A DNA stretch of 64,000 bases from Mycobacterium phage prophiT37-1. This document shows positions 23,128 through 39,049 of this stretch, piece by piece (position 1 is the first letter of the stretch; every line of letters begins with the position of its first letter). A program made the translations under genes and the position numbers. The notes under the pieces are model-generated. The model ran no database searches, had not been told where the DNA came from, and worked only from the letters and a program-made list of their open reading frames with translations. The stretch lies in the sequence record OQ417969.1. One strand, 5' to 3'.

Positions 23128-23331
23128 CTAGCCTTTCTCTGCCTGGATGTTTCGCCGTTCGACCTCGGCTAGGGTTTCGGCTGCGAGCTTGTCGGCCGCT
23201 TCGTTGGTCAGCCGGACTCCGTCGCCGACAAGGAACTCTTCCTTGTCGAGGTCGATGTCGTCGACGACCAGGTCATCGCCGAAGGTGAGGCGCTTGAGGT
23301 CGGCTTCGCTGTGACTGCTCATGAGGGTCAT
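23128..23331 (-). CDS. antitoxin candidate (BrnA-like)
   Basis: acidic N-terminus then VRLTNEAADKLAAETLAEVERR, RHH-like; ATGA-coupled to the upstream toxin-like gene. Confidence 0.35.
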   Translation of the reverse strand: MTLMSSHSEADLKRLTFGDDLVVDDIDLDKEEFLVGDGVRLTNEAADKLAAETLAEVERRNIQAEKG

Positions 23332-23579
23332 TGTGCCCCTCCTTTCCGGTACTTGGTGGGCATGGCGTGGATGCATACCCAGGTCCAGTCCTGGGTGGCG
23401 TGTGGGACCAGGATCAGCTCCAGCTCTACACCGGTGTCGTCGGTGCCTATGAAGTAGAGGCGCCAGATGCCGTCGCGGTTGTCGACGAGCAGCGGCATAC
23501 CGGCGTTGCGGAGTGCTGCCATGACGCGGCGCTTGTTGGCGCGCATCCGCGCTTTCGCTGTGAGTGTCACTCTTGCCAT
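23328..23579 (-). CDS. BrnT/RelE-fold toxin-like protein
   Basis: RLYFIGTDDTGVELELILVPHATQDWTWVCIHAMPTKYRK resembles the BrnT family core. Confidence 0.4.
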   Translation of the reverse strand: MARVTLTAKARMRANKRRVMAALRNAGMPLLVDNRDGIWRLYFIGTDDTGVELELILVPHATQDWTWVCIHAMPTKYRKGGAQ

Positions 23580-23589
23580 GACTCAGAAT

Positions 23590-23605
23590 GTATAGCGCAC
23601 TATAC
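23590..23605. promoter_or_regulatory. dyad operator-like site GTATAGCGCACTATAC
   Basis: GTATA-N6-TATAC inverted repeat in the divergent intergenic region. Confidence 0.45.
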
Positions 23606-23637: not shown

Positions 23638-23653
23638 GTATAGCGCTGTATAC
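23638..23653. promoter_or_regulatory. dyad operator-like site GTATAGCGCTGTATAC
   Basis: same GTATA-N6-TATAC architecture, 11 nt upstream of the 23664 start codon. Confidence 0.45.
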
Positions 23654-23663
23654 GTTTTGAGTC

Positions 23664-23993
23664 ATGAAAAGCCTTTATGTAAAACGTATTGCCGTCATTG
23701 GCGCCGCCATAGCCGCCCTAACGGCACTCCCAACTGCCACCGCTTCCGCGTTCCCCGACCGTTGCCTGTACGCCGCGACAGACGCCAAGACCTGCCTGGG
23801 TGCCCGACCGGCACCCTTCACGCCAGCAGGCGGCGGCGGATACAAGCCCCCGGAGGACCCGGAATGCCCCGAGGGCCAGCACCATCCACCTACAGCTCCT
23901 GGCGCGGGCGAGACTGGAGGTAACAGCGCTGGTAGCGGGTCTGCCGGTAGCGGTGGGTCCTCGGCGAGTGGAGGGGCTGGTACCGGACGGTGA
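23664..23993 (+). CDS. small secreted Gly/Ser-rich protein
   Basis: signal peptide MKSLYVKRIAVIGAAIAALTALPTATASA; Gly/Ser-rich C-terminus. Confidence 0.5.
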   Translation: MKSLYVKRIAVIGAAIAALTALPTATASAFPDRCLYAATDAKTCLGARPAPFTPAGGGGYKPPEDPECPEGQHHPPTAPGAGETGGNSAGSGSAGSGGSSASGGAGTGR

Positions 23994-24047: not shown

Positions 24048-24065
24048 GCTATACCGCGGTATAGC
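24048..24065. promoter_or_regulatory. 18-bp perfect palindrome GCTATACCGCGGTATAGC
   Basis: TATAC/GTATA arms in the opposite arrangement; half-site GCTATAC also at 24013-24019; upstream of the Y RNA array. Confidence 0.45.
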
Positions 24066-24096
24066 TTCGTTTACAGACAACAAAACAGCGGACGAC

Positions 24097-24210
24097 GTGA
24101 ACAGGATGCAGGTCGGTTATCTCGGGGTACGCCCCCGTAGTTCAAGTTAGAACGCCCCGAGCCAAGCGGGGAAATGGATCCAAACCCGCCCAGCGCCAAC
24201 CACGTTCACG
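24097..24210 (+). ncRNA. Y RNA-like unit 1 (divergent; no clear tRNA-like module)
   Basis: 5' motif GTGAACAGGATGCAGGTCGGTTATC pairs with 3' CACGTTCAC (24201-24209); internal CTCGGGG...CCCCGAG stem. Confidence 0.35.
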
Positions 24211-24248
24211 TCGTTCCCCAGACCACAACTACATAGACACCAGGTGGT

Positions 24249-24376
24249 GCGAGCAGGACGCAGGTCGGTTACCACTTGCTAATGGAGAGGTCGCGGGTTC
24301 GAGTCCCGCCAGCCAGCCCCCGGCTGTAGCTCAGTTGGCAGAGCGCTAAACCCCGGTCAGCACACACACGTTCGCC
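24249..24376 (+). ncRNA. Y RNA-like (YrlA-type) unit 2 with tRNA-like module
   Basis: 5' GCGAGCAGGACGCAGGTCGGTTACC; T-arm GCGGG-TTCGAGT-CCCGC; 3' acceptor CAGCCAG, 3-nt loop, 5' acceptor CCGGCTG; D-arm TA-GCTC-AGTTGGCA-GAGC; 3' motif CCGGTCAGCACACACACGTTCGC. Confidence 0.55.
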
Positions 24377-24407
24377 CCATCACCAACACAACTCCATACA
24401 TAACAAG

Positions 24408-24538
24408 GTGTGAACAGGACTTCGTTCGGTTATCTCCTTTCCTGAGAGAGACGCGGGTTCGAATCCCGCCAGCCGCGAAAGTGGTTGTAGCTCAGTGGCC
24501 TAGAGCGCTAAAACCCGGACGACACCCACACGCTCACA
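24408..24538 (+). ncRNA. Y RNA-like unit 3 with tRNA-like module
   Basis: T-arm GCGGG-TTCGAAT-CCCGC; CAGCCGC-GAAA-GTGGTTG acceptor hairpin (7 bp including 2 G-U); D-arm GCTC-AGTGGCCTA-GAGC; end motifs GTGAAC / GCTCAC. Confidence 0.55.
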
Positions 24539-24574
24539 CCACCTCAAACACCAGCAGACGCAGGCGCGCAGGCG

Positions 24575-24708
24575 GTGTGGACAGGACGCAGGTCGGTTAC
24601 CAAAACAGTCAGGTGTGGGTTCGAGCCCCACCACCTCGCTCGCGGGGTGTAGCCCAATTGGTAGAGGCAATTGTCCATATACGCCGGTCAGCACTCCACA
24701 CGCCCACA
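24575..24708 (+). ncRNA. Y RNA-like unit 4 with tRNA-like module
   Basis: T-arm GTGGG-TTCGAGC-CCCAC; CACCTCG-CTCG-CGGGGTG acceptor hairpin (7/7 pairs); D-arm with AATTGGTAGA loop; end motifs GTGGAC / GCCCAC. Confidence 0.55.
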
Positions 24709-24740
24709 CCACCTACGCGCACGCACGACAGACAACCCGA

Positions 24741-24857
24741 TGTGAACAGGACGCTCGGTCGGTTATCACTCAATTGGTTAATGCAGGTTCAAGCCCTGTC
24801 GCCCGCACCCAGTGCGGGTGTAAAAGCGAAATCCCGGTCAGCACACACACGTTCACA
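24741..24857 (+). ncRNA. Y RNA-like unit 5 with partial tRNA-like module
   Basis: T-arm GCAGG-TTCAAGC-CCTGT; CGCCCGC...GCGGGTG acceptor pairing; degenerate D-arm; end motifs GTGAAC / GTTCAC pair perfectly. Confidence 0.5.
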
Positions 24858-24883
24858 TCACCCGCCCAATAGCCCCCGCGGGT

Positions 24884-24961
24884 GGCACGAGCAGGATCGC
24901 AGTCGGTTACCCCACCCCTCGCAAGGATGACGAACCCCGGCCGCCCTTCACACGTTCGCGC
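24884..24961 (+). ncRNA. Y RNA-like unit 6 (stem only, no tRNA-like module) or rsr leader
   Basis: 5' ACGAGCAGGATCGCAGTCGGTTACC and 3' CCGGCCGCCCTTCACACGTTCGCG can pair; ends 16 nt before the rsr AAGGAG RBS. Confidence 0.3.
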
Positions 24962-24990
24962 CGCCCGCACCTCTAACAAGGAGATGCACG

Positions 24991-26718
24991 GTGGACGTTC
25001 TCACCACTATCGGAACCCGTAAGACGCCGCAGTCGCAGCAGGCGGACCCCCGGCAGGTGAAGAACTCCGCCGGTGGCTACACCTTCACCATCGACGACGA
25101 GGCCCTGCTGCACCGCTTCCTCACCCTCGGCACCGACGGCGGCACCTACTACACCAACGCCGCCGAACTCACCAGGGACACAGCGGCCGTCGTGCTCCGC
25201 GCAGCAGCGGCCGACCCGGTCCGCCTCGTCCAGCACATCGTCGAGGTGTCCGTGGATGGACGCGCACCTCGGCAGAACCCGGCCCTGTTCGCCCTCGCCA
25301 TCGCCGCAGCAGCAGAGGACGTCGACGGCCGCCGCGCCGCCGCCGCAGCCCTGCCCACGGTCGCCCGTACCGGCACCCAGCTCTACACGTTCGTCAAGTA
25401 CATGGAGCAGTTCCGCGGGTGGGGCCGCGCCATGCAGCGCGCCGTCGGTGGCTGGTACCTCGACAAGCCCGTCGACCGCCTCGCCTACCAGCTGGTCAAG
25501 TACCGGCAGCGCGAAGGTTGGATGCACCGAGACCTCCTACGCCTGTCCGGCCCGACCACCGCGGACCCGGCCCGCCGCCTCGCCTTCAACTGGGCGGTCG
25601 GCAAGGGCCTGAACGACTACATTGGCAAGGTCCAGCCCCTCACCGCCGAGCAGTTGAAGGCAGGGGAGCGCAACGCCTCCCGGCCCAAGCTGCCTAACGT
25701 CGAGCTGGCGGTTGACCACCCCCTGGCGATCATCGAGGACTTCGAGGACGCCCAGCGCGCCACCCAGCCCAAGGAATGGGTGAGCATCATTCGACGCGGT
25801 AACGGTCTTCCCTGGGAAGCGCTGCCCGACGTCGCGCTCAACTTCACGGCCGTGTGGGAAGCGCTGATTGAGCACGGGTTGCCGCAGACGGCTTTGATGC
25901 GCCAACTGCCTCGTTTGACCCGGCATGGAGTCCTGCATGGTGAATATCTGGACCGTGTCGTAGCTCAGCTCCAGGACGCCGACCGTCTACGCAAGGGCCG
26001 CGTCCACCCGGTCAACGTCCTGATCGCGCAGCGCACCTACGCGTCCGGGCGGTCGGCGCGCGGCGACTCCACCTGGACGCCGGAACGCAAGGTCGTGGAC
26101 GCCCTGGACGCCGCGTTCTACAACGCCTACGGAGCGGTAGAGCCGTCGGGCGAGCCGTCGGGCAAGCGCACCTTGCTGGCGCTGGATGTGTCCGGCTCTA
26201 TGGGCGCCGCTATCTCGGGTATGCCGCTGACATGCCGCGAGGCCGCAGCCGCACTCGCACTCGTCACCGCCAACGTCGAGCCGGACCACGAGGTCGTCGG
26301 CTTCACTGACGGCCGTCAGGCCGCGCGCTCGGGCTACGGCTACCGGTCCCAGCACCTCATCACCCCGCTGGACATCACGCCGCGCCGCCGCCTCGACGAC
26401 GTGTGCCGGTACACCGCCGGACTCAGCTTCGGCGCCACCGACTGCGCACTCCCGATGCTGTGGGCACAGCAGTCCAAGCGCGAGTTCGACACGTTCGTGG
26501 TCATCACCGACAACGAGACCTGGTTCGGCGACGTCCACCCGAACCAGGCGCTCCGCGACTACCGCAACAAGATGGGCATCAACGCCCGCCTGATCGTTGT
26601 CGGCATGACGGCAACCCGCTTCACCATCGCCGACCCCGCCGACCCCGGCCAGCTCGACGTATCCGGTTTTGACACGGCGGTACCACAGTTGATCTCGGAC
26701 TTCTCGGCCGGACTGTAG
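24991..26718 (+). CDS. rsr: Ro60 ortholog (Rsr): TROVE domain plus C-terminal vWA domain
   Basis: N-terminus GGYTFTIDDEALLHRFLTLGTDGGTYY...PALFALAIAAA aligns with the Ro60 TROVE signature LHRFL.(F/L)G.(E/D)GGTYY...P.LFALAI; vWA MIDAS LLALDVSGSMG near 26150-26180; AAGGAG RBS. Confidence 0.9.
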   Translation: MDVLTTIGTRKTPQSQQADPRQVKNSAGGYTFTIDDEALLHRFLTLGTDGGTYYTNAAELTRDTAAVVLRAAAADPVRLVQHIVEVSVDGRAPRQNPALFALAIAAAAEDVDGRRAAAAALPTVARTGTQLYTFVKYMEQFRGWGRAMQRAVGGWYLDKPVDRLAYQLVKYRQREGWMHRDLLRLSGPTTADPARRLAFNWAVGKGLNDYIGKVQPLTAEQLKAGERNASRPKLPNVELAVDHPLAIIEDFEDAQRATQPKEWVSIIRRGNGLPWEALPDVALNFTAVWEALIEHGLPQTALMRQLPRLTRHGVLHGEYLDRVVAQLQDADRLRKGRVHPVNVLIAQRTYASGRSARGDSTWTPERKVVDALDAAFYNAYGAVEPSGEPSGKRTLLALDVSGSMGAAISGMPLTCREAAAALALVTANVEPDHEVVGFTDGRQAARSGYGYRSQHLITPLDITPRRRLDDVCRYTAGLSFGATDCALPMLWAQQSKREFDTFVVITDNETWFGDVHPNQALRDYRNKMGINARLIVVGMTATRFTIADPADPGQLDVSGFDTAVPQLISDFSAGL

Positions 26719-38052: not shown

Positions 38053-38297
38053 TGAAGGAGCAGGTCACCCAGTCGAGCGGTTCCGTCATCCGTCTGGACG
38101 ACCACCGCACCGTGGCCACCTCTAACCACCGCTGCATCAAGTGCGGTAGTGAGTGGTTCCGGCTGGACGGCACCCTGGCCGGACCCGGCGCACCCGCCCA
38201 CGGCGCCGTGGTCCTGGCCGCGGACGACCGCATCCGCATCACCGGCTACTGCGGCACACCCCGCTGCCTGGAGTGCGGCCACCTGGTGGCGGTCTAG
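38052..38297 (+). CDS. small zinc-ribbon protein
   Basis: CIKCG...CLECG. Confidence 0.35.
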   Translation: MKEQVTQSSGSVIRLDDHRTVATSNHRCIKCGSEWFRLDGTLAGPGAPAHGAVVLAADDRIRITGYCGTPRCLECGHLVAV

Positions 38298-39049
38298 TGC
38301 TGTACGTGGTGACTGGCCCGCCTGCCGCTGGCAAGTCCACGTGGGTACAGGCCAACGCCCAGCCCGGCGACATCACCATCGACTACGACGCCATCGCCAG
38401 CGTCCTCACCCCGCCCCACGGTGACCCCCACAGCCACCCCGAGCATGTGAAGGCCGTAACGAAGGCAGCCCGGCAGGCAGCCATAGACGCCGCCGTCCTA
38501 CTGATCGCCACCACCGACGTGTACGTCATCCACTCCACCCCCAGCGAGGCCCTGCTCACCAAGTACCGGGCACTGGGCGCAGAGGTCGTCACCATCAACC
38601 CCGGCAAGGACGTAGTACTCGCCCGCGCCCAGCAGCAGCGGCCCCACAACATCCAGCAGGCAGCACGCCACTGGTACGAGACCCACGACGAAGCGCCCAC
38701 CACACCCGTGGACCCCGCCAACGTCCAGGGCCTGGATGCAGACGGACGCCCACGCTCCCGCGCCTACCGCAAGCTCGTCGCCGACTTCCGCACAGCCTGC
38801 GCCCACCACACCAACGACGACGGCACCACCGGCGCACCCTGCTGGATCTGCCACCACCCCATCGACTACACCATCACCGACCCCTACCACCCCGACGTCT
38901 TCAACGCCGACCACGCCGCACCCGTCAAGGAACGCCCCGAGCTGGCCATGGACATCAACAACCTCCGGCCCTCCCATCGCGACTGCAACCTCAAACGCGG
39001 CACCGACGACGCCCACATCGACATCGGTTTGCCCTCAGAGCAGTGGTGA
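38297..39049 (+). CDS. P-loop kinase-like domain fused to HNH endonuclease
   Basis: N-terminal VVTGPPAAGKST Walker A; C-terminal CWICHH...NLRPSHRDCNLKRG HNH motif; sits just upstream of the terminase genes. Confidence 0.6.
   Translation: MLYVVTGPPAAGKSTWVQANAQPGDITIDYDAIASVLTPPHGDPHSHPEHVKAVTKAARQAAIDAAVLLIATTDVYVIHSTPSEALLTKYRALGAEVVTINPGKDVVLARAQQQRPHNIQQAARHWYETHDEAPTTPVDPANVQGLDADGRPRSRAYRKLVADFRTACAHHTNDDGTTGAPCWICHHPIDYTITDPYHPDVFNADHAAPVKERPELAMDINNLRPSHRDCNLKRGTDDAHIDIGLPSEQW

Follow-up and report, generated by a model that had tools for sequence, protein, structure and literature searches.

A Ro60 gene and six probable Y RNA genes, three of them of the YrlA type, in the Mycobacterium abscessus prophage prophiT37-1

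YrlA-type RNAs encoded beside Ro genes were reported in 2014 from 254 bacteria and 22 phages (PMC4201824). Ro-like genes have been known in mycobacteriophages since 2003, a 2025 note describes one in the larger temperate L2 mycobacteriophages, and 354 of 50,697 phage records now carry such an annotation. In Mycobacterium smegmatis, YrlA and YrlB both bind the Ro protein Rsr, and YrlA is cut by RNase P and then gains CCA (Chen et al. 2014, RNA 20:1715; PMC4201824), its behaviour as an RNase P substrate having been attributed to a 7-bp acceptor stem (PMC4201824). The defining feature of YrlA is a circularly permuted tRNA mimic (PMC4201824; bioRxiv 10.1101/312249), and the published Ro60-binding motif is GNCGAA(N)G (PMC4201824). 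The Ro60 of Thermus phage phiLo binds two phage Y RNAs as well as the host PNPase (NAR 2025, gkaf470; PMC12135203). Here we analysed a stretch of 64,000 nucleotides (hereafter, the window) of prophiT37-1 (record OQ417969.1), a 76.2-kb cluster MabK prophage of Mycobacterium abscessus T37 that has a tyrosine integrase and no annotated tRNAs, and whose spontaneous excision and release are detectable (PMC9934374). From its first base onward, the window aligns collinearly with the sister prophage prophiGD43A-5 (93-97% identity). It contains a Ro60/Rsr gene (rsr), which is already annotated in GenBank, and directly upstream of it an array of small RNA-like units that carries no annotation. Neither Ro nor Y RNAs are mentioned in the papers describing these prophages (PMC8092301, PMC9934374).

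Our analysis indicates that the locus very probably comprises a Ro60 gene and six Y RNA genes, three of them YrlA-type. The identification made in the original prediction, which had read the sequence as a temperate-phage orthologue of Ro60/Rsr with six Y RNA-like genes ahead of it, was correct. Judged from its profile and structure matches, the open reading frame (ORF) at 24991-26718 is a full-length Ro60/Rsr. Both of the profiles expected for such a protein were matched, Pfam TROVE (PF05731) at 5.8e-47 over residues 23-347 and vWA_Ro60 (PF25045) at 2.2e-63 over residues 393-571. Comparison with solved structures covered residues 3-574, the ORF aligning end to end with D. radiodurans Rsr (2NVO) at 2.8e-101, the RO60 structure 9NEN at 4e-98 and X. 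laevis Ro60 (1YVP) at 1.2e-97. The predicted TROVE signature and vWA MIDAS motif both held: the motifs GGYTFTIDDEALLHRFLTLGTDGGTYY, NPALFALAI and DVSGSM are all found in the ORF, with DVSGS aligned to the MIDAS motif of 2NVO and 9NEN. The protein is identical in sequence to WJJ56130.1, 'Ro-like RNA binding protein [Mycobacterium phage prophiT37-1]', and the GC contents of rsr at the three codon positions are 0.69/0.48/0.87. The cluster that it forms with other Ro proteins at 90% identity is recorded on hundreds of contigs. Nearly all members of this cluster have 571 residues; the 575 residues of the prophiT37-1 protein are explained by an in-frame 12-nt tandem duplication (GAGCCGTCGGGC twice, encoding EPSGEPSG) at 26140-26163, just N-terminal of the vWA domain.

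The 881 bp directly 5' of rsr (24088-24968) are non-coding and hold six units on the same strand, designated U1 to U6. GC contents at the three codon positions are 0.63/0.60/0.60 over this interval; in the absence of periodicity, the ORFs that span it are considered spurious and not genes. The six units were first recognised as repeat families by direct-repeat analysis, with the 5' motifs GTGAACAGGAC..GGTCGGTTAYC and the 3' motifs CCCGGTCAGCACACACACGTTCAC, and a six-way alignment showed that their ends are conserved and their centres variable. TRF missed the array, the copies (55-67% alike) being too divergent to register as a tandem repeat. Unit lengths range from 91 to 149 nt, start-to-start distances from 145 to 167 nt and gaps from 12 to 30 nt, and U6 ends 10 nt before the ribosome-binding site of rsr. 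A covariance model, R1, was built from the paired 5' and 3' ends of the six units only, that is, a 9-bp helix (S1), a conserved internal loop and an 8-bp helix (S2). Searching the 64-kb window with R1 gave exactly six matches, all on the + strand and none elsewhere; as R1 derives from those same units, their scores are circular. Independent support was obtained from 46 other loci, fetched by means of the Ro protein, in which R1 gave 113 matches, nearly all of them directly upstream of Ro and on the Ro strand. Of the earlier description of this interval as about 870 bp of non-coding DNA with six units of 115-135 nt, the non-coding character and the number of units were confirmed and the unit size was not; the array had also been taken to start at 24097, and U1 begins at about 24092.

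The 5' and 3' ends of all six units pair as two helices (9 + 8 bp) around the conserved internal loop. The 5' strand of the inner helix, GUCGGUUA, is invariant across the six, and in every unit the regularity of the shared stem is broken by an A-A, an A-C or a bulged C. Among 85 distinct units from the 46 loci, 92.9% of cells in the shared helices were paired, compared to 31-47% when the 3' partners were slid by 1-3 columns, and 12 of the 17 pairs showed changes on both sides. Helix S2 contains conserved U-G and G-U pairs (28/30 and 16/30, respectively, in the 30-unit alignment described below). As these wobble pairs become mismatches on the other strand, and in view of the tRNA-like loops and the + strand Rfam matches, we take the + strand to be the transcribed one. 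All six units, whether tRNA-like or not, have kept the putative docking stem, which argues for Ro60 binding as their common function.

Table 1. Positions in the window of rsr, the predicted Y RNA units and their arms, and the adjoining palindrome.
Feature	Position	Strand	Remarks
Palindrome CTATAC-CGCG-GTATAG	24049-24064	.	24 nt upstream of U1; candidate operator or terminator
Predicted Y RNA unit 1 (U1)	24088-24218	+	R1 61.3 bits; terminal helix 24092-24102 / 24204-14
U1 core hairpins (predicted)	24124-35; 24140-53; 24155-71	+	GGGG-UACG-CCCC; D-arm-like GUUC-AAGUUA-GAAC; CCCCG-AGCCAAG-CGGGG; no T arm
Predicted Y RNA unit 2 (U2), YrlA-type	24240-24384	+	R1 68.2 bits; Rfam YrlA 38.9 bits, E 8.7e-7
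U2 arms	T arm 24293-24309; 5-bp acceptor-like stem 24310-26; D arm 24329-44	+	V-arm CCA-CUUGCUAA-UGG; UA between acceptor-like stem and D arm
Predicted Y RNA unit 3 (U3), YrlA-type	24401-24546	+	R1 62.1 bits; Rfam YrlA 28.1 bits over T/acceptor/D core
U3 arms	T arm 24453-69; 7-bp acceptor-like stem 24470-87; D arm 24490-24506	+	GAAA loop on acceptor-like stem, then UA
Predicted Y RNA unit 4 (U4), YrlA-type	24568-24716	+	R1 69.5 bits; Rfam YrlA 28.5 bits
U4 arms	T arm 24615-31; 7-bp acceptor-like stem 24632-49; D arm 24652-68	+	UA between acceptor-like stem and D arm; no V-arm
Predicted Y RNA unit 5 (U5)	24733-24865	+	R1 65.9 bits; minimum free energy and centroid folds agree
U5 arms	T arm 24783-99; 9-bp acceptor-like hairpin 24800-20	+	UA after the hairpin; no D arm 3' of hairpin
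Predicted Y RNA unit 6 (U6), minimal, 91 nt	24878-24968	+	R1 60.2 bits
Ribosome-binding site of rsr, AAGGAG	24979-24984	+	Read from sequence; 10 nt past the end of U6
rsr (Ro60/Rsr, 575 aa)	24991-26718	+	GTG start to stop; TROVE/HEAT-repeat ring and Ro60-type vWA with MIDAS DVSGS

Between the paired ends, the units differ. Classified by sequence and predicted arms, U2, U3 and U4 are YrlA-type, U5 is of a type with a T arm only, and U1 and U6 have other cores. The original prediction of six Y RNA-like units was upheld for all six by the shared stem and its covariation, the YrlA type being confined to U2-U4. Each of these three has a T arm followed by a closed acceptor-like stem-loop, the dinucleotide UA and a D arm. 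The GG motif of the D loop and the UUCGA motif of the T loop, which correspond to the tRNA tertiary nucleotides G18G19 and T54-A58, are legible in YrlA-type units, and the Levitt pair is A15-U48 in U4 and G15-C48 in U2 and U3. The YrlA fold was assessed in a plain MAFFT alignment of 30 distinct units with T-loop and D-loop motifs, from 17 loci, the structure being read off U2. In these 30 units, 94.0% of cells were paired, compared to 31-46% when slid. Pairing reached 99.3% in the T arm, 96.7% in the D arm and 95.7% in the acceptor-like stem, where 7/7 pairs covaried; the Levitt pair 15-48 was C-G in 24 units, U-A in five and broken in one. A permissive search with the Rfam YrlA model (RF02553) detected U2, U4 and U3, in order of decreasing score, all on the + strand (Table 1). 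Moreover, at 21/23 of the positions targeted by the published 5' probe for M. smegmatis YrlA, the U2 orthologues in two related loci (L030 and L031) have the same nucleotide, which ties the U2 type to an RNA that has been found experimentally to be bound by Rsr. In the same comparison, made by published probe sequences, the M. smegmatis YrlB probe gave no convincing match.

The three remaining units appear to depart from this plan in different ways. U5 has a D-loop-like hairpin (24767-83) on the 5' side of its T arm. U6 is reduced to the Ro-binding stem and a core of about 30 nt, without a T arm. Compared with YrlB-type RNAs, U6 holds the place next to rsr without having a T arm, and U5 has the T arm but is 133 nt long. 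The minimum free energy (MFE) fold of U1 is a four-way junction (z = -3.0), and this unit was found in close, near-identical relatives only. The best-behaved of the units was U3, whose MFE fold (z = -3.3) shows all arms.

Several observations weigh against the identification of the array as a set of Y RNA genes. The 85-unit alignment was fitted to the model and is therefore biased toward the structure, and the docking motif GUCGGU is unlike the published GNCGAA(N)G. No recognisable effector module was seen in U1 or U6, and the U1 core is a prediction only, its orthologues being near-identical. All Rfam YrlA scores are under the gathering score of 69, such that the Rfam check detects three units of which none reaches 69 bits; at gathering thresholds Rfam gave no match in the window, and the Rfam search of the window returned no metazoan Y_RNA match. 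As a control, the YrlA of the mycobacteriophage LinStu was scored with the same model and was likewise sub-threshold (36.1 bits). Since this is a known YrlA of the mycobacteriophage lineage, we consider the Rfam threshold uninformative for this branch. The MFE was unremarkable for U2 (z = 0.19) and U4 (z = -0.86), the z-score of U6 was weak too, and MFE did not favour the + strand, the minus strand folding slightly better. Thermodynamics was therefore dropped as evidence, and the structure rests on covariation and on the tRNA-like sequence motifs. Finally, a consensus scan detected neither a promoter, whether ahead of the array or between its units, nor a terminator following rsr, and a Pfam search of ten ORFs downstream was negative for RtcB, RtcA, RNA ligase and PNPase.

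The number of Y RNAs was then set against Ro identity to the window protein (loci compared are given L numbers). Six to seven Y RNAs per locus is above every other locus examined. Close relatives (Ro 97-98% identical) have six units and L030 (97%) has seven, while three to five were counted in L031-L033 and L037 (74-75%), four in L040 and L041 (62%), three in L045 (62%), two in L002-L004, which are chromosomal loci from Mycobacterium metagenome-assembled genomes (61-65%), and about two in the cluster C1 phage LinStu (55%). It is the number of YrlA-type units that varies between loci. The seventh unit of L030 (L030:3240-3393), a YrlA paralogue whose acceptor-like stem is long, has its nearest counterpart in the second YrlA unit of L031-L033. 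Among the related actinobacterial and phage loci that were examined, most have a short last unit (81-91 nt) adjacent to rsr; in L002-L004 a 90-nt unit has a T arm. The 133-nt unit with a T arm only (U5 type) is second to last before rsr in MabK-type prophages and in the relatives with 75% Ro identity, L031-L033. The YrlA paralogues of the window are 55-67% identical to one another, and their orthologues in other prophages 78-88%. From this difference it follows that the paralogues arose long ago and have each been maintained, which speaks for distinct roles and not for recent amplification. In Mycobacterium phage Sparky (Ro 64% identical), four genuine tRNA genes (Ser, Pro, Trp and Tyr) lie directly ahead of the Y RNAs and Ro (L039:2994-3552), a layout that fits the published idea that YrlA was born from dimeric tRNA transcripts.

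About 500 bp upstream of the array, the window encodes a BrnT-like ribonuclease toxin and its antitoxin (23128-23579, - strand), syntenic with genes 49 and 50 of prophiGD43A-5. The toxin-antitoxin pair is placed among the early lytic genes in the description of that prophage (PMC8092301). In RNA-seq of a lysogen of prophiGD43A-5, which is a 96%-identical sister, the prophage is described as silent except for the toxin-immunity locus (PMC8092301). We consider early lytic expression the most likely timing for the array and rsr. Of the two settings suggested earlier, the prophage or early infection, expression from the prophage is doubtful given the silent sister lysogen (PMC8092301). The palindrome 24 nt before U1 is found at the same place in all close relatives. 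Related palindromes of the form GTATAG-N4-CTATAC, or its inverse, occur at 23590-23605, 23638-23653 and 27100-27115, bracketing a module made up of the toxin-antitoxin pair, the Y RNAs and Ro, and these flanking copies are likewise kept. The hexamer CTATAC was seen 14 times in place of the 6.0 expected, with 8/14 flanking the module. In prophiGD43A-5, the same palindromes recur beside genes 113-115 near the right end (L048:37201 and L048:37657). They look like a candidate operator for a regulator.

Other ORFs around the module were also inspected. Between the toxin-antitoxin pair and the array, 23664-23993 (+) is an unannotated ORF of 109 residues with a signal-peptide-like N-terminus and a Gly/Ser-rich tail. 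Its GC content at third codon positions (GC3) is 0.61, which is not coding-like, and it is therefore possibly no gene; nothing is annotated at its counterpart in prophiGD43A-5. After rsr, 26973-27086 (+) encodes 37 residues with a single hydrophobic helix and has a coding-like GC3 of 0.84, corresponding to the hypothetical gene 54 of prophiGD43A-5. A seventh CGGTTA site, at 27067, was considered as a further Y RNA and rejected as a chance motif lying within this membrane-peptide ORF. The segment 28723-33585 gave no alignment to prophiGD43A-5 and encodes DUF5642 and SUKH-1 (SMI1/KNR4) proteins; it is possibly an exchanged immunity-type cassette. Twelve kb downstream, the ORF at 38153-39049 (+) gave weak Pfam matches to AAA_33 (6.1e-5, just under the cut-off) and HNH (8.4e-5), and its homologue in prophiGD43A-5 is annotated as a polynucleotide kinase. 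This ORF could be a link to RNA repair, with no ligase among the ten downstream ORFs.

From work on D. radiodurans, Salmonella, M. smegmatis and phage phiLo (PMC4201824; PMC12135203), a mechanism can be proposed. The array and rsr would form one early lytic transcript, co-transcription being suggested by the tight spacing (10 nt from U6 to the ribosome-binding site), and this transcript would be cut into separate RNAs. Each Y RNA would dock on the ring of the phage Ro60 through the shared stem, and the differing distal modules would link Ro60 to differing host partners, of which PNPase is documented in other species. The partners of YrlA-type units would be proteins that read the tRNA elbow. 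Through their 7-bp acceptor-like stems, U3 and U4 may be cut by RNase P in the manner of M. smegmatis YrlA, and by the same analogy they are predicted substrates of other tRNA enzymes (TruB, DusA and the CCA-adding enzyme). Entry to the Ro60 cavity may likewise be gated by the Y RNAs. The overall result would be that host decay and processing of structured RNA are redirected to the benefit of the phage. We regard it as an even question whether the Y RNAs do tether Ro60 to host effectors. More speculative still, and in our view rather improbable, is that the six to seven paralogues are interchangeable adaptors coupling one Ro60 to several host machines (PNPase, RNase P, other readers of the tRNA elbow, perhaps ribosomes), or else tRNA-mimic decoys against tRNA-targeting immunity. 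If this were true, the phage would have gained a programmable module for taking over RNA surveillance.

The main alternative is that the tRNA-like Y RNAs are not Ro60 adaptors but chiefly decoy or soak up tRNA-targeting host enzymes (toxin-antitoxin ribonucleases, anticodon nucleases, RNase P, modification enzymes), with Ro60 only stabilising them and the paralogues covering several targets. Three of the units are indeed close tRNA mimics with a conserved elbow, and the V-arm of U2 orthologues resembles an anticodon arm closely enough for ARAGORN to call tRNA-Thr or tRNA-Arg. The neighbourhood is also suggestive: the BrnT-like ribonuclease toxin pair lies immediately upstream, a polynucleotide-kinase-like gene 12 kb downstream, and real tRNA genes stand beside the phage Ro loci of Sparky and LinStu. 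However, all six units keep the docking stem, including the three without a complete tRNA-like module; the mimics have neither an anticodon loop at the tRNA-equivalent position nor a free CCA end, and no defence directed against tRNA has been associated with this host. We therefore think it unlikely that decoying is their principal role.

Could the array instead be a cluster of degenerate or permuted tRNAs, either pseudo- or split tRNAs rendered functional by processing, that adjoins Ro60 by coincidence? The T and D arms have canonical tRNA sequence, and Rfam gave a tRNA match of 40.3 bits at 24320-24477, the sole one. This match is a chimera, however: its halves are the D arm of U2 and the T arm of U3, and 99 inserted nt stand where an anticodon arm would be. 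ARAGORN found no tRNA in the window, and it called one in the U2 orthologues of four relatives (tRNA-Thr in prophiGD43A-5 and L026, tRNA-Arg(tct) in L030 and L038). Its silence on the U2 of the window is explained by a 1-nt insertion in the anticodon-like V-arm loop (CTTGCTAA in place of CTTGTAA). Gene 51 of prophiGD43A-5, annotated as 'tRNA-Thr(tgt)' (L001:8241-8319; window ~24240-24319), is the 5' half of the U2 orthologue. Folding as ordinary tRNAs with anticodon arms, named beforehand as an outcome that would speak against Y RNAs, was thus not observed, and the arm order is permuted. The ends of the units form a 17-bp stem without an anticodon loop, so that no decoding tRNA would result, U1 and U6 lack T and D arms, and the units co-occur with Ro in 46 loci. 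None of the six units is an ordinary tRNA by these sequence features, and the tRNA-cluster explanation, rejected for its arm order, the missing anticodon loop and the constant association with Ro, appears very improbable. A function at the DNA level, as iterons, a replication origin or a recombination hotspot with incidental RNA-like structure, would account for the tandem repeats with their regular period of ~150-165 bp and for the palindromes that flank the module. It would not be expected to conserve pairing in six helices through compensatory double changes, nor U-G and G-U pairs (28/30 and 16/30) that are A-C mismatches on the other strand, nor tRNA-like T-loop and D-loop sequences at a fixed strand and position relative to rsr. 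On the strength of the compensatory changes and the strand-specific wobble pairs this explanation was also rejected, as scarcely credible.

As we read it, a single putative transcription unit packs four Y RNA classes behind one Ro60: full tRNA mimics, a T-arm-only RNA and two non-tRNA cores. It offers a natural series in a spontaneously excising phage, where the partner of each module could be revealed by deleting or exchanging units. Clinical M. abscessus genomes commonly carry the prophage, and both the missing array and the mislabelled tRNA matter for phage-therapy genomics. The earlier description of the locus as the most unusual system in the window overstated the novelty, as phage Ro60 with YrlA has been known since 2014, a phage complex was described in 2025 (PMC12135203) and the Ro gene was already annotated. 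Unusual features are the copy number, set against two in comparator loci, and the age and separate conservation of the paralogues. An array holding six to seven Y RNAs, the four classes of structure within it, the occurrence in M. abscessus prophages and the tRNA mislabel appear to be without an earlier description that we could find; an earlier listing of multiple M. abscessus hits is possible.

Set beside the described systems, the locus shares with D. radiodurans Rsr/Yrn1/PNPase (RYPER) and Salmonella rsr-yrlBA-rtcBA a Ro60 ring with a Y RNA adaptor and several small RNAs beside rsr. Those loci are, in contrast, chromosomal and stress-induced (UV, RtcR), their docking motif is GNCGAA where prophiT37-1 has GUCGGU, and the RtcB and RtcA to which Salmonella rsr is linked are not among the ten prophiT37-1 downstream ORFs. 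Phage phiLo, with Yrl1 and Yrl2, likewise has a phage Ro60 with Y RNA genes upstream and is the biochemical precedent for a Ro60/Y RNA/PNPase complex, although its two Y RNAs have the CGAA motif, no tRNA-like modules have been reported in it, and phage and host are unrelated to those studied here. The cluster C1 phages (Bxz1, ET08, LinStu) also encode a Ro (55% protein identity) and a YrlA with the same GUCGGUUA motif, which also falls under the Rfam threshold. LinStu belongs to the Bxz1 species, and we take it to be of the same cluster C1 lineage as ET08, where Chen et al. reported YrlA. These phages are myoviruses of ~155 kb with large tRNA sets, and ~2 Y RNAs were detected in LinStu, whereas prophiT37-1, a temperate prophage of siphovirus type and 76 kb, lacks tRNA genes and has six Y RNAs. 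The M. smegmatis rsr locus is chromosomal and has two Y RNAs, unlike the six of the prophage, and its YrlB has a T arm where the rsr-adjacent U6 has none. In both, rsr is immediately preceded by Y RNAs encoded on its own strand, and YrlA displays the succession of T arm, acceptor-like stem and D arm; the V-arm of U2-type units is nearly identical to that of M. smegmatis YrlA, whose 7-bp acceptor-like stem has counterparts in U3 and U4.

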